Below, piece by piece: positions 4,820-56,624 of a DNA stretch of 59,518 nucleotides. This DNA comes from a virus. Its lineage: Duplodnaviria; Caudoviricetes. The translations under genes and the position numbers were made by a program. The notes below the pieces were generated by a model, which was not told the DNA's origin, made no database searches, and saw only the letters and a list, made by a program, of their open reading frames with translations. Within the stretch, counting starts at the first letter, position 1. Every line of letters begins with the position of its first letter. The stretch spans positions 1 to 59,518 of IMG/VR virus record IMGVR_UViG_3300033076_000460; one strand, written 5' to 3'.

Positions 4820-5539
4820 TCACTTGGACGCCTGAACCATGCGGATCAGGATTTCGACCGAGTCAGGTGTGCCAGCTTTGGCCAGCTCGCGAATGCGCTT
4901 TGTGAGCGCATCGGCCAATTGCTTCGCCTCGGCCTTGACCTTGTCGATCTCGGGCTTCGCGCGGGCTTCGAGCTCTTTGGCCAATTCGCCCGCCACGCGC
5001 AGGGACTTCGAATCACCCTTTTCGATCAGCTCGGTGCGCTGGGCTTCCAGCTCGAGCTCCGTCATTTTTGCCAGCTCGGCCCTGCGCTTCTCGGCCTTCT
5101 CGCTCATGCGCTTTGCGTCCTTGCCCTCGGCTCTAGGACGGACAAAGCCCGCATTGCTGATCAATCGATTGATCGAACGACGCCAGACCGCGCCCGCGCT
5201 ATCCTCTTCCATGGACTCCGCGCCCGCATCGTATGCCGCCTTGACGAACACCGCGCGAATGCGCATGAAATCATCGTAGGGCACAGGAATGAGCTTCTTT
5301 GTCTCCGGATCGCGCACAGGCTTGCTGTCATCGTCACAGACGCAAATCCATGGGAGGAGTTGCGCGTCACGCTGTTGCAGAACATCCGTGGCCTGACCGA
5401 TCACGGCTTCGGTTTTTTGCATGTCAAAACCGATCGCCGACACCGTGGCTTCCACGTCTGACCACAAACGACCGTTGAACATCTCAGCCGAGGCCGAGGC
5501 CACTGCGGACACTGCCGCTTGGTTTGCTTGGTTTGCCAT
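4820..5539 (-). CDS. hypothetical helical protein, first gene of the leftward arm
   Basis: MANQANQAAV... with GGGAG RBS; GC3-rich codons; charged coiled-coil C-terminus. Confidence 0.75.
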   Translation of the reverse strand: MANQANQAAVSAVASASAEMFNGRLWSDVEATVSAIGFDMQKTEAVIGQATDVLQQRDAQLLPWICVCDDDSKPVRDPETKKLIPVPYDDFMRIRAVFVKAAYDAGAESMEEDSAGAVWRRSINRLISNAGFVRPRAEGKDAKRMSEKAEKRRAELAKMTELELEAQRTELIEKGDSKSLRVAGELAKELEARAKPEIDKVKAEAKQLADALTKRIRELAKAGTPDSVEILIRMVQASK

Positions 5540-35438: not shown

Positions 35439-35869
35439 TGGATATCAGTCTGGTTCCGGTTGGGCAGGTGGCGCGGGCAATTCCTGTGCTGCTGCCTTAC
35501 CTGAAGGTGTCCGAAGAGTGGGCGCATGGGCGGGCAACGGCTGATGACCTGATCCGGTTTGTGCTGAACGGGCAGATGTTTTTGTGGGTTGTGTTTGAGG
35601 ATGACAAGGTCTACGGCCATGTGATCACGGAGATCAAGCAGTACCCGCAGTGCAAGATGTTGGTGATCCAGTATTGCGCGATGGATACTGGAACACTGGA
35701 AAAAATCAACCCGAAGATGCAAGACATTGCAGAGCGTTTTGCCAAAGACGCAGGTTGTGCAGGGATTGAATTTGTGGGTCGCCCCGGCTGGAAGCAGACC
35801 GCCCGTGAATACGGGTACGCCGTGCAAAGCGTAACGTATCAGAAATTTTTTGAAGAGGTCGCATCATGA
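35438..35869 (+). CDS. acetyltransferase-like virion assembly protein
   Basis: FAKDAGCAGIEFVGRPGW; position between tail tube and ejection genes, as for P22 gp14 and T7 gp13. Confidence 0.6.
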   Translation: MDISLVPVGQVARAIPVLLPYLKVSEEWAHGRATADDLIRFVLNGQMFLWVVFEDDKVYGHVITEIKQYPQCKMLVIQYCAMDTGTLEKINPKMQDIAERFAKDAGCAGIEFVGRPGWKQTAREYGYAVQSVTYQKFFEEVAS

Positions 35870-38358
35870 GCAGTGGTGGGCAACAAAAAGCAAGCGAACA
35901 GACAACAATTACGGAACTTCCGGCGTGGGCGAAACCGTACGCGCAAGACGTGCTGTCCAAGGGCCAAGCTCTGACGGACGTCAAACAGAATCCGTACCAA
36001 ACCTACGGCGCACCTCGCGTTGCTGGTTTCTCCCCGATGGAGGAGCAGTCCTTCTCCGGTGCGGCCAACCTTGCGCCGTCGCAAGCAGGTCTGGCCGGAC
36101 AGGGCGTGGCGCTGGGTGCGAGTCTTGGGGCCATGGACACTGGGCAGTTTGGCCCTCGTCAGGCCCAGCGGTACATGAACCCGTACTTGGAGTCGGCACT
36201 GGCTCCCCAGATGGAGTTGATGCGTCGTCAGCAGGGCGCTCAGGCTCAGCAGATGGCGGGTCAGGCCACACTGGCCGGTGCTTTTGGCGGCTCTCGATAC
36301 GGTCTGGGGCAGGTTCAGCAGAACCTTGCCAACCAGCTTGCTCAGCAGAACTTGGTTGGTCAGGGCTACAACACCGCGTACCAGAACGCGATGGCCCAGT
36401 TCAACGCCGATCAGGCCCGTCGTCTCCAAGGCTTGCAGACCTCCTTGCAGGGCGCACAGACCCTTGGTGGCCTCGGCCAACAGCAGTTCGGCCAACAGGC
36501 TCAAGCGATTGGCATCCAGAACCAGCTTGGCGGGCAGCAACGTGGTTTGGAACAGCAGGGCCTTGACGTCGCCTATCAAGACTTCCTGAACCAGCAGAAC
36601 TACCCCTACCGCCAACTTGGCTTCATGTCCGACCTGTTGCGCGGCACTCCCACGGGTCAGTCCACCACGACCAACATGTACCAAACGCCCGGCAGCATCA
36701 TGGGCCAACTGGGCGGCATTGGCATGGGCGCTTATGGCCTGAGCAAGGCTGGCCTGTTCAAAGAGGGTGGTGAAGTTGACAGCTATGCCGAGGGTGGCGA
36801 AACTGATCTTGACATGCTGAGCGATGATCAGCTGAAGGTTTCGTACCAAAATGCTCTGGCGCGGGGCGACATCCTGACGGCCCAAGCCATTCAAACACGC
36901 CTTGCTGAAAACACGGCTCTGCGCAATGCTCAGCAAGCTTCGCTGTCGCGTGGCCTCGGTTACGCATTTGATCAGCTTCCCGCTGAGCAACAGAACAACG
37001 TGATCTCTGCCGCAGGTGGTGGCATCGTTGCGTTTGCTGGTGGTGGGAACAAGGGCGAATACTACCAAGACCCGCTTGGGACGCCTTCGGCGGCGGAACC
37101 CGATGACTCTGGTTACAGCATCTTCAAACAGGACATTCGTGAAGGCGAAGAGTATTCGCCGAACCTGTTGGGCATGTTGTTTGGGTACAACCGCTTGCCC
37201 CCCAAAGAGAAGAAAGCGGCAGAAACTAAAAGCGCCGCTCCTTCCGGCACTCCGTACGATCCTCTGACGGCCACGCGCCGTGAGGATTTTTCTGACGCGC
37301 CCCCCGCAAAAGCACCGGCAAAAGCACCCGCAACAGCGTCGGGTGCCGCGGCTCCCACACCGGCAAAATCCATCACGGAAGCCGTCAAGCGGACCAGCAT
37401 GCCTGATGCCATCAAGCAGATGCAAGAAGTCTTGAACGATCCTGAATCCGCAAAGCTCATTCAAGAGAACGCGGATGAGATCAAACGCTACGCCGCACGC
37501 GCAGAAGACGTGAAGAAGCAGCGCGGTGCAAACGCTCTGGCAGAGTTTGGATTCCGCATGGCAGCAGAAGCGTCCAAGCCGGGCTCCACCTTCTTTGGTA
37601 GCGCGGCAGCGGCCAGCCCGACCATCACGGAGTCGCTCAAGAAGTCCGAAGAAGTCGAACAGCGCATGGCTGACAACGCCATGAAGATGCGCCAGTTGCA
37701 GAACCAGTCGGTCATTGCGATGCGCAAGGGTGATCGTCAGTCGGCGATCCAAGGCGCAGCACAACTTCGTATGCTTGAGCAGTCGCAGGAACAACTGGCG
37801 CTCCAACGAGATCAGTTGGCTGAAACCATCCGCGCCCACAAGGCGACGGAATCCATCCATCGCGAACAGCAGAACAAGCCCAGTGAAACTGAGCGTATCT
37901 TGGCAAAAGTTGAGAACATCCGCAGTGGCAAGGAGTCGTATGCCGGTATGACTGGTGAAGAGGGTGTAGCTGCCTACACTGCGGCGATGGGCGATGTCGG
38001 CGCGGCTCGCTACGGTGTGCGTTACTCGGGACAAAACAAAGACATCGAGCGCTACACGAACATCCTCAAGGACGACCAAGAGTACAAAATGCTCAAGGTT
38101 CAGCGTTCACAGCTTGCCGGGCAAGCAGAACCCAACGACAAGCAACGTGCCAAGCTTGCGCGGATTGACAACCGCATTGCGGAGATTGAGGCTCGTGCGC
38201 GTAGCAGCGCAGGTATGGGTCAGGGCGCTGGCCCGGTGCAGGGAGCACCGCAAGTTCCTCCGCAAGCGATTGCCGCGTTGCGTGCAGATCCCCGCTTGCG
38301 CGATCAATTTGATGCAAAATATGGACGAGGTTCGGCAGATCGATATCTAGGAGACTGA
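35866..38358 (+). CDS. DNA ejection (internal virion) protein
   Basis: Q/G/A-rich; YMNPY and AGAFGGSR motifs. Confidence 0.7.
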   Translation: MSSGGQQKASEQTTITELPAWAKPYAQDVLSKGQALTDVKQNPYQTYGAPRVAGFSPMEEQSFSGAANLAPSQAGLAGQGVALGASLGAMDTGQFGPRQAQRYMNPYLESALAPQMELMRRQQGAQAQQMAGQATLAGAFGGSRYGLGQVQQNLANQLAQQNLVGQGYNTAYQNAMAQFNADQARRLQGLQTSLQGAQTLGGLGQQQFGQQAQAIGIQNQLGGQQRGLEQQGLDVAYQDFLNQQNYPYRQLGFMSDLLRGTPTGQSTTTNMYQTPGSIMGQLGGIGMGAYGLSKAGLFKEGGEVDSYAEGGETDLDMLSDDQLKVSYQNALARGDILTAQAIQTRLAENTALRNAQQASLSRGLGYAFDQLPAEQQNNVISAAGGGIVAFAGGGNKGEYYQDPLGTPSAAEPDDSGYSIFKQDIREGEEYSPNLLGMLFGYNRLPPKEKKAAETKSAAPSGTPYDPLTATRREDFSDAPPAKAPAKAPATASGAAAPTPAKSITEAVKRTSMPDAIKQMQEVLNDPESAKLIQENADEIKRYAARAEDVKKQRGANALAEFGFRMAAEASKPGSTFFGSAAAASPTITESLKKSEEVEQRMADNAMKMRQLQNQSVIAMRKGDRQSAIQGAAQLRMLEQSQEQLALQRDQLAETIRAHKATESIHREQQNKPSETERILAKVENIRSGKESYAGMTGEEGVAAYTAAMGDVGAARYGVRYSGQNKDIERYTNILKDDQEYKMLKVQRSQLAGQAEPNDKQRAKLARIDNRIAEIEARARSSAGMGQGAGPVQGAPQVPPQAIAALRADPRLRDQFDAKYGRGSADRYLGD

Positions 38359-38359
38359 G

Positions 38360-41300
38360 ATGGCTAACTTCTTTGACCAGTTTGACGCTGAGCAAAAAGG
38401 TCGGCCACAAGGGAACTTTTTCGATCAGTTCGACAGCGGCGCTCAACCCAAACTTGGGCCAACCGAATCTGGTGGGTTCACGGGCTCTTTCCTTGAGTCG
38501 CTCAAGGAACGCTTCTCCACCGCACTCCCAGCGGCCAAGTTGTACACCGGGCTGGGTGACCAGAGCGAAGCTACCAAGCAATTGTTGGCTGCGAACCAAG
38601 CTTCTGAAGAAGCGTTCAAACAAACTGAATTCAGCGACATTGGTGACTCCTTGAAGCAGGGGCGCTACGGTGAGGCCCTTGGCAAAACCGTGGACAAGTT
38701 CAAAGAAGTCGCGGGTTCTTCTTTCGGTTCCATGGCCCCCGCCATGGTGGCTGGTCGCGGCGCGGCCATGTTTGGTGGCCCCGTTGCCGGCCTGACCGCG
38801 TTTGGGCTCGTGTCCCTCGGGTCGTACATCGCCGACAACATTGGCCGGCAGAAACAAGAACAGCAAAAGCTGGGGCGTGAAGGCGAGGACATTGATCGTC
38901 TGTCTGCATCAGCGGCTTCTGCTGGGCAGGCGGCGCTGGACGTCTTCGGCTTCAAGTTCTTCAAACCGTTGGGCAAGCTGGTCGGCATCGAAGGCAAAGA
39001 AGCCGCCGATCGCGCAGCGATGGAGATTGTGGAAGCCGCCACAAAACCCAACGCGTACAAACGTGCTGTGGCCAAAGGGCTGGCGGAAGGTATCGCGTTT
39101 GAAGTCCCGCAAGAAGTGGCGCAGCAGGTTCTGGAGCGTTGGCAAGCTGGGCTCCCCCTTGACCCGTTCACCGACCCTGAAGCCGCCAAAGAGTACGCCG
39201 AAGCCGCCGGTGGGGCGTTGTTGCTTGGTGGTCCAATGGGCGCGGGCAGCAAGGTCATGCAGACCTACGCAGCCCGTCAGACACCCGAGGGCCAAGCTCT
39301 TTTGAGTCCCGCTACGCAAGGGTCGGTTTACGACACGCTCTCTAAAGGAGAAGAAGATGTTGCAGGATTTGAGCCAAGAGAAGATCGAACTGGCGCTGAA
39401 ATGGCTGGACAGCCCGGTGCTATCGCCCCCGCCGCAGGAGCTGGAGAACTTGACACAAGTAGAATGGTATCTGCTGGACAACCTGCTCCAGCTGCTGTTG
39501 AAAGAGAAACAGAACAGCCAAGTTCACTGACCGACGACACGCTTGAACGTCTCGACACGTTCAAGCGGCAGTACCAAGATCTCCGAAACGAAGCCTTGTC
39601 CTTGATGGGCCAAGGCGCTATGACGCCCGGGCAGACCAATCAGCTGCGCATGGTCCAGCGTGATTTGAGTGCTGTCGTGGACGCCAACGCCGACTTGCTT
39701 CGCAACCCAGAGCTGGTTGCCCAGCTCAAGAACCCGGTCTTCAACGGAATGGCCGCACTGCCGTCTCAAGGCGAACTGATCCCCACCGCCTCTGCTGTGC
39801 ATCGCAAGATTGCCGTTGCACTGACTATGGGTCGTCGCGATCCGCAAGCCGCCGCAGCTTTCTTGCAAGGGCAGAAGGAACGCTTGCAGCAGCGCTACGA
39901 CAACGGCGAGTACAACCAAGACTGGGCACGGTCTGTCGCCAAGAGCTACAACCTGACGCAGGGTGAAGCGGTGCAACGCTACCAAGAGTTGGCCAAGGCC
40001 CACCTGCAACAGCAGATGGCCGAGATCGATCAGGCAATCGCCGACGTGTCTCGCCAGAAGTCATTGGCCAGCCGCGCCCCCGAACAGCAGCAAGGTTTGT
40101 TTGACGAAGATGAGGCTGCGGCCAAGCTTGAAAAAGCTATCTACGGGGGCGAGGCTTCTCAACGCAAAGTGATCGATGAGACGTTTGGTGCCCCAGCGCC
40201 AAGCACCCTAAAACCGCGAACAGCATCGGTTAATTTCAAATCGAACAGCACTACCGGCATCGTTTCTAATGAATCTGTGCTTGGTGGTCTGCGCCGAATT
40301 GCTGAAGACGACGATATCGCGTCGGAGTACCCCAATCGAGTGGGCGCAGTGATGCTCACTGGTTTAGATCGTCAAGATGGCGGGCAAAAAGGTCGAGCTT
40401 CTGATGTATTGAAAGCGTTGACCGCATGGGCGGACAAAAATAATGAACGCCTAGTCCTGATGCCTGCCGCCTCCGGAGATTTAACCCAAGCGGATTTAGT
40501 TAAATGGTACGAGCGTAACGGATTTGTTTCTCGAAATGACGGCGCTATGGAGCGTGCCCCCGCCGCAAAACAAGAACGCGTCGCGGAGCCTACAGCCGAA
40601 GAATCCGAAATCCAGCCCGGGCTCACTGAGAAACAAGTTGGCAAAGAAGGCGTACCCGCTGAGTTCAGCGCCGAGCACATTTTGGGTACGCCAGAAGGTC
40701 GGGCCGTGCAGCAGCTTTTTGGTGGGATTAAGTCCGCTGCTGGTTCACCTAGCGAGACCCAGAAGCATCAGTCCTTGTTGCAGAACATTGCCAAGGTGTT
40801 CACTGAATACGACATCATTAGTATCAGTGAACGCGCTGGCGCGGGTATGCGTGCGGCGCTTGAGTTTCTCCAAAATAAATTTGGTGGCGCCGACGCTTTT
40901 CAAAATTTGCTGTCTCGCTTGGGCACCATGTCAGCAGAAGCACAGTCGAAACTTTTCAAGCAGCTTCGATTGCCTGATCTCACGACCCGCCGTGGGCTGG
41001 AAGACTTCCAGCGTGAGGTTGAGAAGTATCTGGAGCAGCGCACGCTTACCGGCGGAGGCGTCAAGATCCCCACAAAATCTACGTCTGCTGGACGTGGCAT
41101 CTTCCCGTACAGCGAAGAGATCTCGGTTGGTCTCAACGAGGCCAAATCTTTCCCTCCATTGGAAAGCGGCCAGCCCCGCCGCCCCGAGATGCGTATTTAT
41201 GATAAAAAGTACAAGGTCTCCGACACTCGAATTCGTCAGGCCGTCAAGTTTTTGCGCCAAAAGATTGAAGCGCGTTTGAAGCTCACGCCTGAAGACATCG

Positions 41301-44300
41301 CTGCCAAGACTTATTTAGACAACAAATCCCGTAGCACCTTTGGTGACGTGCTTCGAGATTTGGCGTGTGATTTGGCTATGTTCAAACTCGACCCCAAAGA
41401 GCACGGAGCCAACTCCCTGTTCCGTGGAGAGGGTGGTAAGTACGCAGAAAACTTCCGTGCATGGCTTGAGAAGAACACAGACAAAAACACAATCGAGCTT
41501 CTCGATCAGCTGATTGCGGATCAGACTGCCACCTTCGAGGCCGAAAAGCTGTTTGACTCGTATGTCAGCGACTACAACCGCAAGTTGGAAAAGCTGGCTG
41601 AACAGCGCCAAGACGACTACGAGAAGCGCACCGGTAAAAAGCTGACCCGTGCGCCCGGCCAGCGCAAACCGCGCAAGGTCGTTCAGACCAAAGTAGCCGA
41701 GGCAGTTGGAGAAACCACCGCCGAAGAAACTGAAGAGACACCTGATGTAGAGGCCATCACAAAGAACCTTCCGCAGGTTAAGTGGCTCGGTCTCCATACC
41801 GCCATCTTCCGCACCCTTGAAAAAGGTGACGTGCGTGGTGCGCTTGAGATCATGGCCGGAGGCAACGGTTACTACTCGTTGCTGGCTCAGCGCCTTTTGG
41901 ACGCCGGGATCGATGCAAAAGTCCGCTTTATCGACAACAGCACGATGGAGTCGCTTAACGACAACCCGATGGATAAACGGGTCTTGGACAGCTACATCAG
42001 TTCTGTGTCCAAGATTGTTGAAGCGTTGGCGGCTGGTGATATGAAGGAAGAATTGCTCGCCAAGTTGAAGTCAAGCGACCCCAACCTTGTGGGCAACGCG
42101 TTGTATCAGGTGGCTGGTACGGCAAAACAATCAGGCGGCACGAAGAGCCAAATTCAAACACTTGAAGACGCATACAAGTTTTTCCAAAACAACTATATGT
42201 GGCGGGGAAAGTTTGCCCCCGATAAAAATGAGATTGTGTTTCGCCGCTCGAATGGATTGACTAATGCTTTGTTCTTGCACGAGGCTATCCATGCGGCTAC
42301 GGCTTCTGCCATCAACAAGTCTGAGAAGCTCACCGGGATCCGCAAGCAAGGTTACGACCAGCTCAAAGAGTTGTTTGAGTACTCGCAAAAAGCACTGAAA
42401 GATTTGCAGGTCACCGACGGCAGTCTCTACGGGTTGACCAACCTGCACGAGTTTGTTGCCGAGGCCATGACCAACCCCTTGTTCCAAGCGCATCTGCGCA
42501 AGCTGGCGTACAAGGCGTCGCCGTTCTCGTTGTGGACTCGTTTCACCCAAGCCGTCCGCAAACTGTTTGGCATCAAGAACGACAAGAGCATCGAATCCAA
42601 CGTGTTCAATGAAGCCCTGCTGGCTACGGATGCGTTGATGCCCGGCGGCATCACCGGTAAGGAAGATGTGACAGGAACCGGCGGCGCTATGGCGGCTGCG
42701 TTCTTCCCCAAAGGTGTAGCCAACTCCAAGACCGCGCTCAACAACCTGATGACTTCAGGCTCTTGGAATGAAGCCAAAGCCAACTGGCCCCGGTTCTACA
42801 ACAGCTTGAAAGCCGACATGCGCCCCGGCGTGCTGGGCTTCCTGACCATGCGCCAGATGGCGGATATTGTGGGCGGGCGTATCCCGCAGCTGAACAACTT
42901 CATCCGCGTGGCCGAAGAGTTCATGGCCCGCAAGAACGAGATTCTGACCCTCTCCGGTGACATCTCCAAGCGTTGGGAGAAGCTGCAAGCTCGCAACCCA
43001 GATATGTCTCGTCAGCTGGGCGCGGTCATGCACCGAGCCACGATCAATGAGATTGACCCTGACCCCCAGAGCATCTTCACGTCTCAAGCGCAACGCGCCA
43101 AAGACCCGGATCTGACCAAGATGTGGAACGCCCTCGACGCTGAGGCCAAGGCCATTTACCGGCAGGTGCGTGACTTCTACGAAGACCGTTACTCCGAGTA
43201 CCGTCAGACGTTGAACCGACGTTTGATCGCCATGAACCAGTACGGGGTCTCAGAAACTACTATCAATGAGATTCGCGCCGAGTTCGACAAAGCGCGACGC
43301 AAGGGGCCGTACTTCCCGCTCATGCGTCATGGGCGGTTTTGGTATCAGGTCGGCACTGGCAACACCCGTGAGTACTACATGTTTGAGTCTCAGGGTCAGT
43401 TGGAAGCGCACCTCGCGGACAACCCCCGCAAGGACGAACTGACTGCCTCGGGGTCGCAGTACCGCGAGCAGCAAGACCTGCACGCTCGCCAGTCTCAGTT
43501 CTTGAAGGCTACGTTCGACGCGATCGACAACTCGTCCGCGTTGAACGCACAGGATCTGAAGGACTCCGTGTACCAAGCATGGCTGTCTACGCAGCCTGAG
43601 TCGAGCTTCCGCAACCAGTTCGTGCATCGCCAGAAGGTGGCCGGCTACTCGGAAGACGCCCTGCGCAACTTCGCCAAGTCTTCGTTCCACATGGCCTATC
43701 AGTTGGCGCGGTTTGAGCACTCCTCAGAGATGTTCTCCCAGATCGCCGCCGCTCGCCTTCAGTTGAAGGAACGCGTGAAGCCTGCTGATCCCGCCAACGT
43801 GAAGACCATGCGCGAAAACAATGAATTGAGCGACTACGTGAAGGAGATGGACCGCCGTCTCACGTTGATGCTCAACCCGACTGACATCGGCACGATCCCC
43901 TCGGTGCTGTCAAACATCGGCTTCATCTGGTATCTGACCGCCCCCGCCTCGGCGATCGTCAACGTGTTGGGCGGCATGGTCATCGGCTTGCCCACACTGG
44001 TGGGTCAGCAGGTCCGGCTCAACCCCAATATGTCATACATCAAGGCCACCCTCAAGGCGCTCGGCGAAATGAAGACCGTGGCTGCCGAGATCATGCGAAC
44101 GGGGTTTGCGTTTGAGAAGGGCGCACGTCTCAAGGACAACATGCTGCACTTCCCGTCTTTGACCCGCTCCTCCACCCTGAGCGCCGTGGACAAAGCAGCG
44201 TACGACCGCTTTGTCGCGGATGGCCTGATCGACATCACCGCCACCTACGACCAGTCGGGCTTGGCCGCATCTCCTACTGAGTCCTACACGGGCACGCGCC

Positions 44301-45496
44301 ACCGCGTCATGCAGGCTCTGTCCAGCTTGTTCCACAACGCTGAACGGTTCAACCGAGAAGTTATGGCGATGTCCGCTTTCCGCACGGCCATGGAGAAGCG
44401 CAAGGACTACGCTGATAAAACCCAAGCATTCAACGAAGCCATCGCTGAAGCCAAGGACGTGACCAACCGCTCGATGTTTGACTACTCGTCCATGAACAAG
44501 CCGCGCTACTTCCAGCACCCGGTTGCTCGTGTGGTGTTGCAGTTCAAGCAGTTCCCGCAGCAGATGACTTTCTTCTTGGCCCACAACTTCCTGAACATGA
44601 TCAAGGGGGCGTCGCCTGAAGTCCGCCGTGAGGCCACCGCCCGATTCGTCGGAACCATGGGCATGGCGGGCATCTTCTCCGGGGCCACCGGTCTGTGGGG
44701 CTTCTCGACCGTAGCCAGCATTTTGAATGCGGTGATCAATGGCTTGGACGACGAGCGGGACGAACCCTTCGACTTTGAGTTGGAGTTCGTCAACTGGGCC
44801 AACGAGACCTTTGGCAAAGGTCTGGGCATGTTCATCTCCCGCGGCATCGGCAACGCGGTCGGCGTGGACTTGGCCAGCCGCACCAAGCTTGACGAGATGT
44901 GGTTCCGCGACGGGCGCAAGAACCAAGACGAGGTGGAAGCCCTGCAATCATTCCTCGTGGAGCAGCTTGGCCCCACCGTTGGGCTTGGCATCAACGCCGC
45001 GCAAGCCGTCAAGCTGTGGAACGAAGGCCACGCCGATCGTGCGCTGGAGATGGTGGCCCCTGCCTTTATCAAGAACCCGCTGGTCGCTGCCCGTTACGCC
45101 CGCGAGGGGGCCAACACGCTTGCAGGTGACCCGCTTGCCGAAGATATTGGGTCTTTCGACCTACTGATGCAGTCCCTCGGTCTGCGCTCTGCGGACATCG
45201 CGGAGCGCCAGTACTACAACATCACGAAGAAGGGGCAGGAACAGGCCATCCTCAAGGAGCGCCAGAACCTGCTGAACCTGTACGGCATCAGCTTCATGGC
45301 CGGCGACTTTGAGTCGAACGACAAGGCGCTTGAGAAGATCATGAAGTTCAACGAGAAGCACCCGTCGGTGGCGATCCCCTCGGACTCGATCATTCGTTCG
45401 ATCGAGCAGCGTGCCAAGAAGTCGGCCATGACAGACCATGGTCTGTACATCGACAAGCGGATGCTGGGGATGAAGAGCGAGAGCTATCTGGACTAA
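38360..45496 (+). CDS. giant polyvalent internal virion protein (GNAT-like, HExxH zincin, PLxRFG-like domains)
   Basis: 2378 aa; QKGRASDVL...LVKWYERNGF; LHEAIH...HEFVAEA; YFPLMRHG. Confidence 0.8.
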   Translation: MANFFDQFDAEQKGRPQGNFFDQFDSGAQPKLGPTESGGFTGSFLESLKERFSTALPAAKLYTGLGDQSEATKQLLAANQASEEAFKQTEFSDIGDSLKQGRYGEALGKTVDKFKEVAGSSFGSMAPAMVAGRGAAMFGGPVAGLTAFGLVSLGSYIADNIGRQKQEQQKLGREGEDIDRLSASAASAGQAALDVFGFKFFKPLGKLVGIEGKEAADRAAMEIVEAATKPNAYKRAVAKGLAEGIAFEVPQEVAQQVLERWQAGLPLDPFTDPEAAKEYAEAAGGALLLGGPMGAGSKVMQTYAARQTPEGQALLSPATQGSVYDTLSKGEEDVAGFEPREDRTGAEMAGQPGAIAPAAGAGELDTSRMVSAGQPAPAAVERETEQPSSLTDDTLERLDTFKRQYQDLRNEALSLMGQGAMTPGQTNQLRMVQRDLSAVVDANADLLRNPELVAQLKNPVFNGMAALPSQGELIPTASAVHRKIAVALTMGRRDPQAAAAFLQGQKERLQQRYDNGEYNQDWARSVAKSYNLTQGEAVQRYQELAKAHLQQQMAEIDQAIADVSRQKSLASRAPEQQQGLFDEDEAAAKLEKAIYGGEASQRKVIDETFGAPAPSTLKPRTASVNFKSNSTTGIVSNESVLGGLRRIAEDDDIASEYPNRVGAVMLTGLDRQDGGQKGRASDVLKALTAWADKNNERLVLMPAASGDLTQADLVKWYERNGFVSRNDGAMERAPAAKQERVAEPTAEESEIQPGLTEKQVGKEGVPAEFSAEHILGTPEGRAVQQLFGGIKSAAGSPSETQKHQSLLQNIAKVFTEYDIISISERAGAGMRAALEFLQNKFGGADAFQNLLSRLGTMSAEAQSKLFKQLRLPDLTTRRGLEDFQREVEKYLEQRTLTGGGVKIPTKSTSAGRGIFPYSEEISVGLNEAKSFPPLESGQPRRPEMRIYDKKYKVSDTRIRQAVKFLRQKIEARLKLTPEDIAAKTYLDNKSRSTFGDVLRDLACDLAMFKLDPKEHGANSLFRGEGGKYAENFRAWLEKNTDKNTIELLDQLIADQTATFEAEKLFDSYVSDYNRKLEKLAEQRQDDYEKRTGKKLTRAPGQRKPRKVVQTKVAEAVGETTAEETEETPDVEAITKNLPQVKWLGLHTAIFRTLEKGDVRGALEIMAGGNGYYSLLAQRLLDAGIDAKVRFIDNSTMESLNDNPMDKRVLDSYISSVSKIVEALAAGDMKEELLAKLKSSDPNLVGNALYQVAGTAKQSGGTKSQIQTLEDAYKFFQNNYMWRGKFAPDKNEIVFRRSNGLTNALFLHEAIHAATASAINKSEKLTGIRKQGYDQLKELFEYSQKALKDLQVTDGSLYGLTNLHEFVAEAMTNPLFQAHLRKLAYKASPFSLWTRFTQAVRKLFGIKNDKSIESNVFNEALLATDALMPGGITGKEDVTGTGGAMAAAFFPKGVANSKTALNNLMTSGSWNEAKANWPRFYNSLKADMRPGVLGFLTMRQMADIVGGRIPQLNNFIRVAEEFMARKNEILTLSGDISKRWEKLQARNPDMSRQLGAVMHRATINEIDPDPQSIFTSQAQRAKDPDLTKMWNALDAEAKAIYRQVRDFYEDRYSEYRQTLNRRLIAMNQYGVSETTINEIRAEFDKARRKGPYFPLMRHGRFWYQVGTGNTREYYMFESQGQLEAHLADNPRKDELTASGSQYREQQDLHARQSQFLKATFDAIDNSSALNAQDLKDSVYQAWLSTQPESSFRNQFVHRQKVAGYSEDALRNFAKSSFHMAYQLARFEHSSEMFSQIAAARLQLKERVKPADPANVKTMRENNELSDYVKEMDRRLTLMLNPTDIGTIPSVLSNIGFIWYLTAPASAIVNVLGGMVIGLPTLVGQQVRLNPNMSYIKATLKALGEMKTVAAEIMRTGFAFEKGARLKDNMLHFPSLTRSSTLSAVDKAAYDRFVADGLIDITATYDQSGLAASPTESYTGTRHRVMQALSSLFHNAERFNREVMAMSAFRTAMEKRKDYADKTQAFNEAIAEAKDVTNRSMFDYSSMNKPRYFQHPVARVVLQFKQFPQQMTFFLAHNFLNMIKGASPEVRREATARFVGTMGMAGIFSGATGLWGFSTVASILNAVINGLDDERDEPFDFELEFVNWANETFGKGLGMFISRGIGNAVGVDLASRTKLDEMWFRDGRKNQDEVEALQSFLVEQLGPTVGLGINAAQAVKLWNEGHADRALEMVAPAFIKNPLVAARYAREGANTLAGDPLAEDIGSFDLLMQSLGLRSADIAERQYYNITKKGQEQAILKERQNLLNLYGISFMAGDFESNDKALEKIMKFNEKHPSVAIPSDSIIRSIEQRAKKSAMTDHGLYIDKRMLGMKSESYLD
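39357..39530 (+). CDS. nested +1-frame small protein (57 aa) inside the giant virion gene
   Basis: AAAGGAG RBS 6 nt before the ATG; MLQDLSQEKIELALKWLDSPVLSPPPQELENLTQVEWYLLDNLLQLLLKEKQNSQVH; GC3 bias moves to this frame. Confidence 0.7.
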   Translation: MLQDLSQEKIELALKWLDSPVLSPPPQELENLTQVEWYLLDNLLQLLLKEKQNSQVH

Positions 45497-54204: not shown

Positions 54205-54410
54205 GTGTTCTTCTCCCGTTTGGTTTCCATGGCCTTCCACCAGCCAAAGGCAAACGCCTTCTTCTCTGCTTCTGTTTGGCACTCGGGTGGAGGCTCGGGC
54301 TGTGCCATTCGGTTGACAGCCTTGTCCACGCTGGACTGCATCTGATGTTGCACCCCATCAACGAACCCGCGCTCGTAGTCCGGGCCTTGGTCAAGTCGCG
54401 GCTTGGTCAT
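54201..54410 (-). CDS. hypothetical protein
   Basis: MTKPRLDQGPDYERGFVDG...KREKNT; junction repeats at both ends. Confidence 0.65.
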   Translation of the reverse strand: MTKPRLDQGPDYERGFVDGVQHQMQSSVDKAVNRMAQPEPPPECQTEAEKKAFAFGWWKAMETKREKNT

Positions 54411-54559
54411 GTATTCTTCTCCTTCGCATGCACAACCGCCTCCAAGCATTTCCAATCCTGCGGTGTCCACTTGCGGCCAAGCCGGGCTTCATCCTCCTTG
54501 ACGAACGCCATGAGTTGGATCAGCCTGTCAAACAATGCTGGTTCTTTTCTCAGGTTCAT
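54407..54559 (-). CDS. hypothetical protein (50 aa)
   Basis: Read by hand: MNLRKEPALFDRLIQLMAFVKEDEARLGRKWTPQDWKCLEAVVHAKEKNT. Confidence 0.6.
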   Translation of the reverse strand: MNLRKEPALFDRLIQLMAFVKEDEARLGRKWTPQDWKCLEAVVHAKEKNT

Positions 54560-54894
54560 TCTTTCTTCTCCTCGTTCGTGTCGAGAACCCAGTACACACC
54601 CGGGTTGGCGATCTTCTCCTTGCGGGTTGCTGGGCGCATGCCAAGTTGATTGAGCAAATCCTTCAGCATCCTGTTTTCATCGGAAAGATGAAGCGTCAAT
54701 TTGAGGTTCTCAGCGTGGCGCTCTGCCACGGTCTTGGAAAACTTCTCAATGCGGTGGAGCAAGCCCTGCACATCCTTCCGCAGGGTTTCTGTTTCATACC
54801 AGAGGTAGTCTGGGTTTACACCCTCGACTGAAAGGCTGTCTTTGTAGTCGGCGGGTTTGCCAGCTTCTTCTGTGGTTGATGGTTGGGGGTTCAT
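54556..54894 (-). CDS. hypothetical coiled-coil protein
   Basis: ATGA-coupled ORF. Confidence 0.6.
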   Translation of the reverse strand: MNPQPSTTEEAGKPADYKDSLSVEGVNPDYLWYETETLRKDVQGLLHRIEKFSKTVAERHAENLKLTLHLSDENRMLKDLLNQLGMRPATRKEKIANPGVYWVLDTNEEKKE

Positions 54895-55148
54895 TCTTCA
54901 ACCCTTTCGTAGGTCATTTCAAAAATGTCGGGCTTGCAGGGATAGTGCTCACCCTTCACGCCAGTGATGATCCAATCTCCGGGTGTAACCATGTGTCCAC
55001 CTTCAAGGGTGTTAACCCACCCGCTATCTGACTCGGTCCATTTATCAGACACGCCATCCCCAACCATTACTTTCTTCACCGCAGGATGGTCGCCGTGCTT
55101 GAACCACTGCGTGGCCTCAATGACCACGGGCTTCTTTCTGAACTTCAT
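54891..55148 (-). CDS. conserved small phage protein (KKPVVIEA/PGDW family)
   Basis: MKFRKKPVVIEATQW...TLEG..VTPGDWIITGVKGEHYPCKPDIF. Confidence 0.85.
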   Translation of the reverse strand: MKFRKKPVVIEATQWFKHGDHPAVKKVMVGDGVSDKWTESDSGWVNTLEGGHMVTPGDWIITGVKGEHYPCKPDIFEMTYERVEE

Positions 55149-55339
55149 TCTTCAACTCCAAAATGTTTTTTGATCAGGTCATCGGCTTTGTATGGCTCGG
55201 CGATGTCGGCAATCTCAGCGCACTGTCTGGCTACCTCCTTGACCAGAAGCTCAAGGTGCGGCGTTGATACCGTCCATGTTGTGTAGTTGCTGTTTTGGGC
55301 AATGATCTGCCTGAGTGCTGTTGCCATGTCGAATTTCAT
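55145..55339 (-). CDS. hypothetical protein
   Basis: ATGA-coupled; IKKHFGVEE. Confidence 0.65.
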   Translation of the reverse strand: MKFDMATALRQIIAQNSNYTTWTVSTPHLELLVKEVARQCAEIADIAEPYKADDLIKKHFGVEE

Positions 55340-55581
55340 GTGTTCTTCTCCTTAAGTCGTTCTTCAAAGGCGGCATACAGATCCTGCATGTAGACAACTT
55401 TCCCCGTGAGAACCTTAGCCTTGATTGCGTCGCGCTCCTCGTCAGTCAGGCCCACCCAGTTATCACGCGGGTTCAGGCGTCTTACTTCGGCTTCATGCGG
55501 CGCAAGGCTGTTAGCGATATACGGACCCGCCTTGCGTGAAATTTCATTGCGCCTTTTGTTGGTCAAAAATACCCATGTCAT
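55336..55581 (-). CDS. hypothetical protein
   Basis: WVGLTDEE...LKEKNT. Confidence 0.65.
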   Translation of the reverse strand: MTWVFLTNKRRNEISRKAGPYIANSLAPHEAEVRRLNPRDNWVGLTDEERDAIKAKVLTGKVVYMQDLYAAFEERLKEKNT

Positions 55582-55823
55582 GTGTTCTTCTCCTTAAACC
55601 CAACAACAGCAAGTACAGATAACTCTTTGAAATCATCTGCATCCATCGTGATTGATACGCTGTGGTCTTTGCCAATACCAATCGTGCTGGTCATCCAGCC
55701 TTCGCCACAATACTCTGTCTTCTTGGCTGCTCGCTGAAATCCGTTTCGGCGCACCAACTCAAACAGCAACTGCTCATCTGAAAAAGTCTCAATACTTCTT
55801 TCCCATTTGGTGTCTTTGCTCAT
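55578..55823 (-). CDS. hypothetical protein
   Basis: ATGA-coupled; ends FKEKNT. Confidence 0.65.
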   Translation of the reverse strand: MSKDTKWERSIETFSDEQLLFELVRRNGFQRAAKKTEYCGEGWMTSTIGIGKDHSVSITMDADDFKELSVLAVVGFKEKNT

Positions 55824-56143
55824 TTGTTGCTCCTTGCTCTGATAAATTCAGCCCTGTTTCTCACCCATGCAATTGCGGTGCTCGGCTCCATGTCGGCAAT
55901 CATTTGTTCTGCCATCTCATCAAGCACCTTCGCACACGCCTCACGCTCTGCCCTGACTGCCGCCTCGCGGGACTCGTGCAGTTCACGCATCACCTCAATG
56001 ACAGCTATCTCATGCTTGAGCATGATGGCTTTAATCATCTCAATGGGCGTCTCAATCATTGCCAGTGCCGCCGCTTTGTTTTGGTCGGTTTCGTTCTGCG
56101 CTTTGATGATCGCCTCTTGATGTAACTTACTCAGTGGTTTCAT
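55820..56143 (-). CDS. hypothetical protein
   Basis: AEREACAKV...IRARS. Confidence 0.65.
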   Translation of the reverse strand: MKPLSKLHQEAIIKAQNETDQNKAAALAMIETPIEMIKAIMLKHEIAVIEVMRELHESREAAVRAEREACAKVLDEMAEQMIADMEPSTAIAWVRNRAEFIRARSNK

Positions 56144-56624
56144 GTTTTCTTCTCCTGTTCATCCAGCACTTCCTTCAGCTTGGGGTAGTACCGCCCAACA
56201 CTAATCAGCGTAGACTGTGTCGTCCTCGGGTCGAACCCATACTCAAGGTGTTGTTTCAGATTTGCGTGAGCTATACCAAGCAGTCCGTAGAGCGTGGCGT
56301 TCTCATTTTTGAGTTCTTCGATCTCCAGATTCCTGCGCCGCGTCACCTCTTGGGCAAACCTCCTGAGCATGGAGTTGGTGGCCTCATGCTCCACGTTCCA
56401 GCCAAGCAGTCGAGCAATCTCAATCACCTCGTCCCGCCTCATTGCCTCTTCCTGCCTGTCGGCAATCTGCCTCTTGCGCCAACCGCTTTGACGGCGGGCG
56501 GCTTCAAATGCTTCGTCTTCTTCGTTCATTTTCTCCCCCTTGCTCGGATTGCTTTGGCAAATATATGGTCATGCCCATAGTATTCATATTGTTCTTCGCA
56601 CACCTTCGCACACGCCTCACGCTC
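55925..56624. repeat. 24-bp perfect direct repeat pair
   Basis: CACCTTCGCACACGCCTCACGCTC at 55925-55948 and 56601-56624 (encodes EREACAKV). Confidence 0.9.
56140..56529 (-). CDS. hypothetical protein
   Basis: ATGA-coupled; ends QEKKT. Confidence 0.6.
   Translation of the reverse strand: MNEEDEAFEAARRQSGWRKRQIADRQEEAMRRDEVIEIARLLGWNVEHEATNSMLRRFAQEVTRRRNLEIEELKNENATLYGLLGIAHANLKQHLEYGFDPRTTQSTLISVGRYYPKLKEVLDEQEKKT

Follow-up and report, generated by a model that had tools for sequence, protein, structure and literature searches.

Evidence for an independent 57-codon gene nested in the linker of a giant polyvalent-protein gene of uncultured phages

Does a short open reading frame (ORF) that lies entirely inside a giant phage gene encode a protein of its own, or is it a by-product of the gene around it? 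This question is raised by positions 39344-39530 of IMG/VR virus record IMGVR_UViG_3300033076_000460, a viral record of 59,518 bp, estimated to be 94% complete, which was analysed at its full length and is referred to here as the window. In this locus, a 57-codon ORF occupies the +1 frame, wholly within a 2378-codon ORF on the + strand (38360..45496); the two are called here the small (or embedded) gene and the giant (or host) gene. An earlier reading of the DNA letters by a model (the original prediction) had proposed that a separate gene is hidden at this place. From the comparison of related viral sequences, we consider it highly probable that the locus is a true dual-coding region, in which the host frame encodes a drifting linker and the +1 frame an independent protein of 57 amino acids (aa) that is under purifying selection. 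The features concerned are as follows.

39344-39350, + strand: Shine-Dalgarno (SD) sequence AAAGGAG, found by direct sequence reading and followed by the 6-nucleotide (nt) spacer aagaag (39351-39356)
39357..39530, + strand: embedded 57-aa gene (product P0002), from ATG to TGA (39528-39530), in the +1 frame of the giant gene
38360..45496, + strand: giant gene, encoding a 2378-aa large polyvalent / DarB-like protein with an LPD39 domain and a PHROG match; last gene of the + strand structural module
39356..39532, + strand: host-frame linker over the embedded gene (host aa 333-391), a low-complexity interdomain segment

Direct reading of the sequence confirmed the arrangement originally described, namely AAAGGAG, six nucleotides, ATG at 39357 and TGA at 39530. 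It had also been claimed that the host frame turns to A/T-ending codons across this span, and this is indeed so: the GC content at host codon positions 1, 2 and 3 is 0.596, 0.419 and 0.687 over the giant gene as a whole versus 0.741, 0.621 and 0.224 in the ORF span. A third-position GC content (GC3) this low is found in just 0.34% of the 174-nt windows of the giant gene, and the dip is sharply delimited (~39290-39590), starting and ending with the embedded ORF. When the same span is read in the +1 frame, the GC content by codon position becomes 0.62, 0.22 and 0.74, a gene-like pattern that bears out the supposed richness of this frame in G/C-ending codons. It is to be noted that an ORF of such length is not by itself unusual, since in the giant gene 58 stretches of 55 or more codons are open in alternative frames; it is conservation and selection in the relatives that make this ORF non-random. 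Motifs of the form AGGAG-N4-9-ATG were observed 35 times in the window versus 8.8 expected, many of them at evident gene starts, including that of the giant gene itself. The unpaired probability predicted near the embedded start was 0.55 versus ~0.40, a rise too slight to use.

Recurrence of the small ORF in other viruses, nested in giant genes with its ribosome-binding site (RBS) kept, was among the checks proposed for it, and such recurrence was indeed found. With P0002 alone as query, three viral contigs were matched (L002-L004). Each has the small ORF nested at +1 within a giant one, its ATG or GTG preceded by AAGGAG or AAAGGAG and its stop at an unchanged position; the host-frame peptides over the embedded ORF differ widely among these three. 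When 52 loci (L005-L056) were fetched by the N-terminal 700 aa of the giant protein, a hidden Markov model (HMM) of the small protein found the ORF in 19 of them, always in the +1 frame, and a broader HMM raised the count to 21 of 52 by adding a diverged copy in L012/L013. The remaining 31 are more distant giant proteins, with only the first 25-40 residues in common, and no copy was found within 3 kb in these loci. A scan of viral contigs with the family alignment matched 203 contigs, of which the best 80 were kept (L057-L136); these best 80 of 203 yielded 81 HMM hits, every one of which is nested at +1 in an open frame of 300 codons or more, with not one hit in +2. Among distant giant proteins whose C-terminal region is 36-40% identical to that of the window, two of five records (L186/L187) contain a nested copy whose start is preceded by GGAGG or AGGAGG, and a low-GC subfamily (L194-L196/L199) is nested likewise in the +1 frame. 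Overall, ~105 distinct contigs were examined, as counted by hand from the match tables; the gene was nested in the +1 frame in all of them, and no stand-alone copy was seen among them.

The diverged copy in L012/L013 was missed by the first two HMMs and reached an E-value of 1.3e-5 with the broader one. It was located by composition before the homology search found it: in L012, a GC3 dip at 4868-5173, ~660-720 residues into the related giant gene, marks a copy with its ATG at 5018 and a C-terminus ending in NSLLH. The lesson for method is that a local GC3 collapse in a long gene, combined with a gene-like periodicity that has moved to another frame, located the hidden gene of the window from that one sequence, as it did the diverged copy afterwards.

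The signals at both ends of the small gene are also conserved. The start codon stands at the canonical site in 76 of the 81 hits (61 ATG, 8 GTG, 7 TTG), 66 of the 81 are 57 aa long, and the place of the stop is constant. In the 63 distinct loci with a canonical ATG, the SD logo at positions -12 to -7 reads A (.62), A (.78), G (.95), G (.83), A (.78) and G (.86); this element is conserved although it is not part of the small coding sequence and the host protein is unconstrained there. Residues 1-6 of the small protein are conserved as well, and the +1 frame is closed by a stop not far before the start, 18 codons upstream of the ATG in the window and 4 codons upstream in L007, L009, L010 and L129.

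Selection was compared between the two frames in several ways. Among 19 distinct ungapped 57-codon copies, the mean aa identity was 0.57 in the +1 frame versus 0.37 in the host frame, and the +1 frame was more alike than the host frame in all 171 pairs. Nucleotide variability was lowest at the third position of the host codon, which is the second position of the small frame, and highest at the first position of the host codon, which is the third position of the small frame. The ratio of nonsynonymous to synonymous substitution rates (dN/dS) was estimated in 77 distinct ungapped copies by our own OLGenie-type script, in which sites are classed by their effect in both frames and intervals are obtained by bootstrap over codons. 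For the small frame, dN/dS was 0.23 (0.12-0.36) over all pairs, 0.13 (0.08-0.21) in pairs of more than 80% identity and 0.05 (0.02-0.08) in pairs of more than 90% identity, whereas the host frame over the same overlap gave 0.96-1.42. Frame-specific dN/dS had been suggested as a check, and its outcome (0.05-0.24 for the small frame, ~1.0-1.4 for the host frame) favours the small gene. Conservation that follows only the main frame would have spoken against such a gene; the opposite was seen, the host frame being the unconserved one.

The host frame has nonetheless stayed open. It is uninterrupted in 77 of 77 copies, with an expected probability of 0.11 when the small protein is kept and synonymous codons are drawn from phage usage; the third frame is open in 4 of 77. 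Since all host frames are open despite a dN/dS of ~1, the host frame is selected only for staying readable, and the small frame for its sequence. Variants of near-identical strains, taken from contigs of other metagenome runs that are DNA or probably DNA, offer an independent view of the same span: among the 40 places listed of 75, there are 11 within the ORF, nine of them at its third codon position, and 29 beyond it, 19 of them at the third position of the host codon (Fisher p = 0.0007). Four marks of a same-strand embedded gene, namely nesting in relatives, an SD sequence and start of its own, selection on the embedded frame, and two open frames, were found, and the hidden gene of the original prediction is strongly supported by its conserved SD, start and stop, by purifying selection on +1 only, and by the openness of both frames.

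The product of the small gene is rich in leucine (22%) and acidic, with a mean net charge of -4.6 over 260 family members. Cysteine is absent from the window's copy and makes up 0.1% of residues across the 77 copies and 0.3% in the family. The family profile is L5-[ST]-x-x-Q-[VLI]-E-x-A-[LF]-x-[WYF]-L ... P-P-x-E-L-x-x-L ... E-W-[FY]-L-L-x-x-[ML]-L-x-x-L ... E-[KR] ... [LV]-[HQ]-stop, in which L5, A13, W16, P25-P26, L29, L32, E36-W37, L40, L44, E50 and a C-terminal His or Gln are invariant or nearly so. The ORF had been expected to encode helices, and the AlphaFold2 model built from the family alignment is in agreement, predicting three of them (residues 7-18, 27-30 and 34-56) with a mean predicted local distance difference test score (pLDDT) of 79.6. 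In a set of 5.8 billion clusters, 217 proteins matched at E ≤ 0.01, mostly of exactly 57 aa, unnamed or 'hypothetical', and without Pfam domains; the family comprises at least 203 clusters at 50% identity (E ≤ 1e-3), and nearly all matches reach the C-terminus of the protein. It had been supposed that gene callers miss this ORF. This was right for the window's copy, which is absent from a collection of 15 billion proteins, and wrong for the family, given the 217 homologues present there as unnamed or 'hypothetical' entries.

Named relatives were looked for without success. The profiles of Pfam, PHROG, NCBIfam and PADLOC gave no match to the small protein, the best match among PDB sequences had an E-value of only 0.061, a Foldseek search of the model against PDB and BFVD returned nothing at E ≤ 0.001, and the best Z of VIA-align for the model, 5.0, is within the noise for small helical models. 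No usable match was found in the ESM Atlas, and the bacterial and archaeal species genomes searched gave no match to P0002. As to the roles offered in the original prediction (inhibitor or immunity protein, chaperone, exclusion factor), neither homology nor fold nor gene context pointed to one of them. Searches of the literature on overlapping phage genes, polyvalent proteins and PLxRFG turned up no mention of the embedded gene.

Several database entries that seemed to place the small protein in another context were considered and rejected. P0262, in which a small-terminase helix-turn-helix is joined to the small-protein C-terminus, is probably a chimera; it comes from a 526-bp contig, and the relatives of its N-terminal part, of 218-225 aa, match that part only. 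P0161 is probably a chimeric contig. P0213, in which the end of the N-terminal domain seemed to be fused in frame to the small protein, is a frameshifted call; it matches five viral loci, and the four that were read are all nested as usual. In P0243, host-frame sequence runs into the small frame, and an ART-PolyVal domain lies just upstream of the linker. Both P0213 and P0243 are read as miscalled hybrids of the locus. P0245 has a repeat resembling helix 1 of the small protein, with no informative Pfam match.

The giant protein itself belongs to a recognizable class. Pfam LPD39 matches at aa 1485-1627 (E 1e-24), and the C-terminal 750-880 residues match PHROG families, including DarB-like antirestriction, at an E-value of 2.8e-92. 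The + strand block upstream encodes the large terminase, portal, tail fibre, virion structural proteins and a DNA-ejection-like protein (35866-38358), and the giant gene is followed by a primase on the opposite strand. A multidomain protein with LPD39 in a packaging and late-gene setting is what is expected of a large polyvalent protein. Two further regions of the giant gene flank the argument.

38360..39355, + strand: N-terminal all-helical domain with a doubled NFFDQFD motif and Gly-rich hydrophobic stretches, located upstream of the embedded gene in most relatives
43130..45493, + strand: conserved C-terminal region with PLMRHG, like the PLxRFG proteins of cultured podophages

The C-terminal region is 36-74% identical across its full length in 49 viral loci, and its 788 aa are 26-30% identical to the DarB-like/PLxRFG proteins of 70 cultured phage records of ~57-63 kb. 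In the Bcep22-like phage JC1 (PMC9144972), the DarB-like protein gp69 was detected in virions by mass spectrometry. From homology and gene order, it is a reasonable inference that the product of the giant gene is a virion protein. The host sequence on either side of the embedded gene is much less conserved than the small protein. By jackhmmer, aa 60-330 have homologues in 61-77 of 80 loci, and the part downstream in ~18 of 80; by blastp, the 150-aa flank of the window upstream of the embedded gene was found in 11 of 80 loci, and the 300-aa flank downstream in 16 of 80. The AlphaFold2 model of the N-terminal domain is all helix, with a pLDDT of 54.9, which is too poor for a structure search. 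Between these parts, the host-frame peptide over the embedded gene consists to 78% of A, G, P, S, T, E, D and Q in the 77 sequences, contains no Trp, Tyr, His or Cys, and has 0.1% Phe. By composition, the host-frame product of the overlap is thus a flexible linker, in line with the disordered linker that had been read from the window alone.

How the two proteins would be made, and what the smaller one may do, can be proposed from these data. The comparison shows that the host frame runs straight through the span, the amino acids of its Ala/Gly/Pro/Thr/Val linker drifting neutrally provided no stop arises, and that the +1 frame has its own AAGGAG RBS, ATG and stop, its product being strongly constrained across a large clade of uncultured podophage-like viruses. 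Because a promoter scan found no sigma-70-like promoter in 38000-40000 of the window, ribosomes would start internally at 39357 on the late structural mRNA. Synthesis of the small protein from that late mRNA would therefore coincide with that of the giant protein in both time and place. In the same contigs, the small protein is 51-58% and the C-terminal 790 aa of the giant protein 56-71% identical to those of the window, and the small protein is much better conserved than the adjoining parts of the giant protein. As it is better conserved than the first third of the giant protein, it is probably important to these phages; being conserved on a par with the C-terminal region, it probably meets a conserved partner. 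We tentatively suggest, largely by analogy, that it may be an accessory partner of the giant ejected protein, which it would load, stabilise or restrain, as an escort in assembly and encapsidation or as a regulator of the C-terminal region. Prediction of a complex between the N-terminal domain and the small protein gave a score of 0.00, which carries no weight either way.

Other readings of the locus have to be weighed against the one just given. That there is no gene at all, the ORF being a by-product of conservation of the host frame, of an antisense gene or of an RNA or DNA element, or else a chance ORF in GC-rich DNA, is scarcely credible and largely refuted by the comparison of the loci. 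Such by-products do occur in the giant gene, as its 58 alternative-frame segments of at least 55 codons testify; several of its C-terminal segments match 40-46 loci purely as host-frame shadows, and the window has an open antisense frame spanning the region. At this locus, however, the host frame is unconserved (dN/dS ~1, aa identity 0.37 vs 0.57), variation is highest at the third and lowest at the second position of the small frame, the antisense frames are open in just 1, 53 and 57 of the 77 sequences, and SD, start and stop are all conserved. It is also very improbable that there is no separate gene and that a programmed +1 frameshift appends a helical tail of 57 aa to a truncated N-terminal domain. 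Frameshifting can be stimulated by SD-like sequences, prfB and dnaX being examples, and P0213 and P0243 join host-frame sequence to the small frame. Nonetheless, +1-frame stops stand 4-18 codons before the conserved start, the start codon is at the same aligned place in 76 of the 81 hits with residues 1-6 conserved, and the loci matching P0213 are nested as usual, hence its dismissal as a frameshifted call.

If a separate protein is accepted, its role may still differ from the one preferred. It is possible, though rather doubtful, that the protein is independent of the giant one and acts on the host as an acidic factor of anti-defence, host takeover or superinfection exclusion, made late or carried along, its nesting being a historical accident that fixed its timing. 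Many phage inhibitors are small, helical and free of cysteine, and the small protein resembles them in these respects as well as in its acidity (mean net charge -4.6 over the 260 members). Conservation far above that of both host flanks suits a conserved target other than a neighbouring domain, and an overlapping gene is unable to move, so its position says little about function. Against this, no PADLOC, Pfam, PHROG or NCBIfam profile and no similar solved structure was found, and unless the protein is packaged, late-operon timing would be odd if it served host takeover. Genes for anti-defence tend to be patchy in distribution and to evolve fast, unlike this gene, which is present in every clade member examined with a dN/dS of 0.05-0.24. 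Improbable, in our estimate, is an inhibitor or immunity-like protein that silences an enzymatic domain of the giant protein (the HEAIH metallopeptidase-like region, LPD39, or ART-PolyVal in relatives) until packaging. An ART-PolyVal domain does lie just upstream of the linker in P0243, and conservation of the giant C-terminal region is close to that of the small protein (56-71% versus 51-58% in the same contigs); the domains adjoining the embedded gene, however, vary among relatives, unlike the small protein. Peptidase and ADP-ribosyltransferase domains are known from polyvalent proteins (PMC5512222), but the term 'immunity protein' has no occurrence in that paper. The remainder of the probability falls to roles other than accessory partner, host-directed factor or inhibitor of an enzymatic domain.

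The dual-coding reading, with an accessory partner as its preferred product, has several points to contend with. No cultured phage with the gene was found: in INPHARED, blastn with 38360-40400 and tblastn with the N-terminal 800 aa of the giant protein gave no match, tblastn with three family members gave only a 15-residue chance match (E=10), and the family model found no copy in five cultured relatives of the giant protein (Atu_ph08, Skulduggery, LASTA, Mwe-JY07 and douglas 12A4). Five of the 81 hits lack the canonical start and need an in-frame ATG 10-12 codons upstream, which yields forms of 67-69 aa that are likewise present in databases. The dN/dS values come from a simplified script of our own and from pairwise comparisons that are phylogenetically non-independent, and divergence at NS sites is saturated in distant pairs, which the bins of closer pairs avoid. 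The 77 copies were chosen by the small-protein HMM, so that openness of the small frame is circular in this set, whereas the figures for the host and third frames are not. Finally, the poorly conserved flanks (11 of 80 and 16 of 80 loci) argue against a tight fit of the small protein to the neighbouring domains of the giant protein.

The arrangement has precedents, none of which is an exact counterpart. In phage lambda, Rz1 lies in the +1 frame of Rz. There and in Bcep22-like podophages, as here, a short gene with its own start lies wholly in a longer gene of the same strand in the late region. Rz1, however, is a lipoprotein, made with a signal peptide and bearing a lipobox Cys, whereas the small protein has neither Cys nor a hydrophobic leader; an Rz1-type o-spanin identity was thus considered and ruled out, P0002 being free of Cys and of a hydrophobic N-terminus, and Cys making up 0.3% of the family. 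Unlike Rz/Rz1, moreover, the host frame of the overlap is a neutrally drifting linker, and the host gene encodes a giant ejected polyvalent protein rather than a lysis protein. Overprinting is classically known from phiX174, with B in A, E in D, and K. In these and the many RNA-virus cases of overprinting (on which there are the reviews PMC8227390 and PMC6188560), one of two frames is strongly constrained and one product is typically disordered, much as seen here. Those genomes are of a few kb, with compression the usual explanation, whereas here a short embedded frame is conserved in a 7.1-kb gene of a 59.5-kb phage. In the Dar system of phage P1, the giant DarB depends for its entry into the capsid on small helper proteins, among them Hdf, DarA and Ulx. 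The likeness, which may be one of functional analogy, is that a giant DarB-like protein (by PHROG match here) is accompanied by small co-expressed proteins; the P1 helpers are separate genes, whereas the small protein is embedded and has no similarity in sequence or fold to any named protein. Large polyvalent proteins, as portrayed in the main text of Iyer et al. 2017 (PMC5512222), resemble the giant gene product in having LPD39, linker-joined domains and a position among late genes beside packaging. A gene hidden in a linker is not part of that picture: in the main text of PMC5512222, 'overlapping' has no occurrence and the single 'embedded' concerns peptidase domains.

To call the small gene 'overprinted', as the original prediction did, implies that its frame is the younger one, and on this the evidence points both ways. 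The small frame has the composition of ordinary coding sequence, as if the linker were the overprinted one; this signal is equally what stronger selection acting on the small frame would be expected to leave. As to distribution, members of the giant protein family occur in cultured phages with no detectable small gene, although the linker itself is not comparable over that distance. A bolder version of the accessory role, which we put forward as speculation and consider unlikely, is that the giant ejected protein has in the 57-aa protein a partner it cannot do without, either an escort in encapsidation or ejection or a brake, and that the linker is the younger element, the giant gene having fused an N-terminal membrane-active module to the polyvalent body across an older gene that still functions. 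If true, it would offer a handle on the loading of multi-thousand-residue proteins into capsids and their release from them, and would mean that linkers of giant proteins can hide essential genes.

Embedded genes in large double-stranded DNA phages are thought to be rare and have seldom been proven. The comparative proof is unusually clean here, with ~105 independent contigs, frame-specific selection, a kept RBS and both frames open. It concerns a new and widespread small-protein family, whose members appear in public databases as unnamed 'hypothetical proteins' with their nested position unrecorded, and the gene sits in the giant polyvalent/DarB-like class of packaged and injected proteins, which is among the least understood of phage proteins. 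The family is new and the kind of arrangement is known; together, they are of solid interest to phage biologists and to researchers of overlapping genes.

A number of minor features of the giant protein were observed in addition. Its start bears a doubled short aromatic/acidic motif, the two copies ~10-16 residues apart; in the window it reads NFFDQFD...NFFDQFD (38366-38386 and 38414-38434), and in relatives (L005-L136) it takes the form of FDPDAYL twice, IIDPFE/IVDPFE, WWEEAP/WWQAAP or DFSxEL twice. The doubled motif may be a docking or targeting signal. A Gly/Ala-rich hydrophobic stretch at aa 119-158 (38714-38833), with a second at ~aa 283-298, has the look of membrane-active or glycine-zipper segments. 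There is a HEAIH (HExxH) motif at aa 1307-1311 (42278-42292) and a Q-K-G-R-A-S-D-V-L stretch at aa 676-687 (40385-40420), the latter of which we take to resemble acetyltransferase motif A; in Pfam, neither gave a significant match, the weak 'Salactin' hit having an E-value of 0.015. Elsewhere in the giant gene, a 251-codon +1-frame ORF (40524-41279, + strand) was also considered as a candidate gene and is probably due to chance, with a counterpart in none of the fetched loci and no GC3 collapse.

Two contigs from other metagenome runs differ from the window near the small gene. One contig of run X15 has lost one base at 39279 and gained one behind 39281, so that the two changes compensate each other a little before the small gene, and in one contig of run X5, 38 bases across the SD and start (39343-39382) are skipped or replaced. 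These differences could be either strain variation or assembly noise. In a distant part of the window, on the - strand of 54408-56156, a near-identical SD-start context, AGGAGAAGAA(A/C/T)ACATG or AGGAGAAGAAAGAATG, recurs at 54408, 54557, 55337, 55579 and 56141, which suggests a run of small paralogous early genes.

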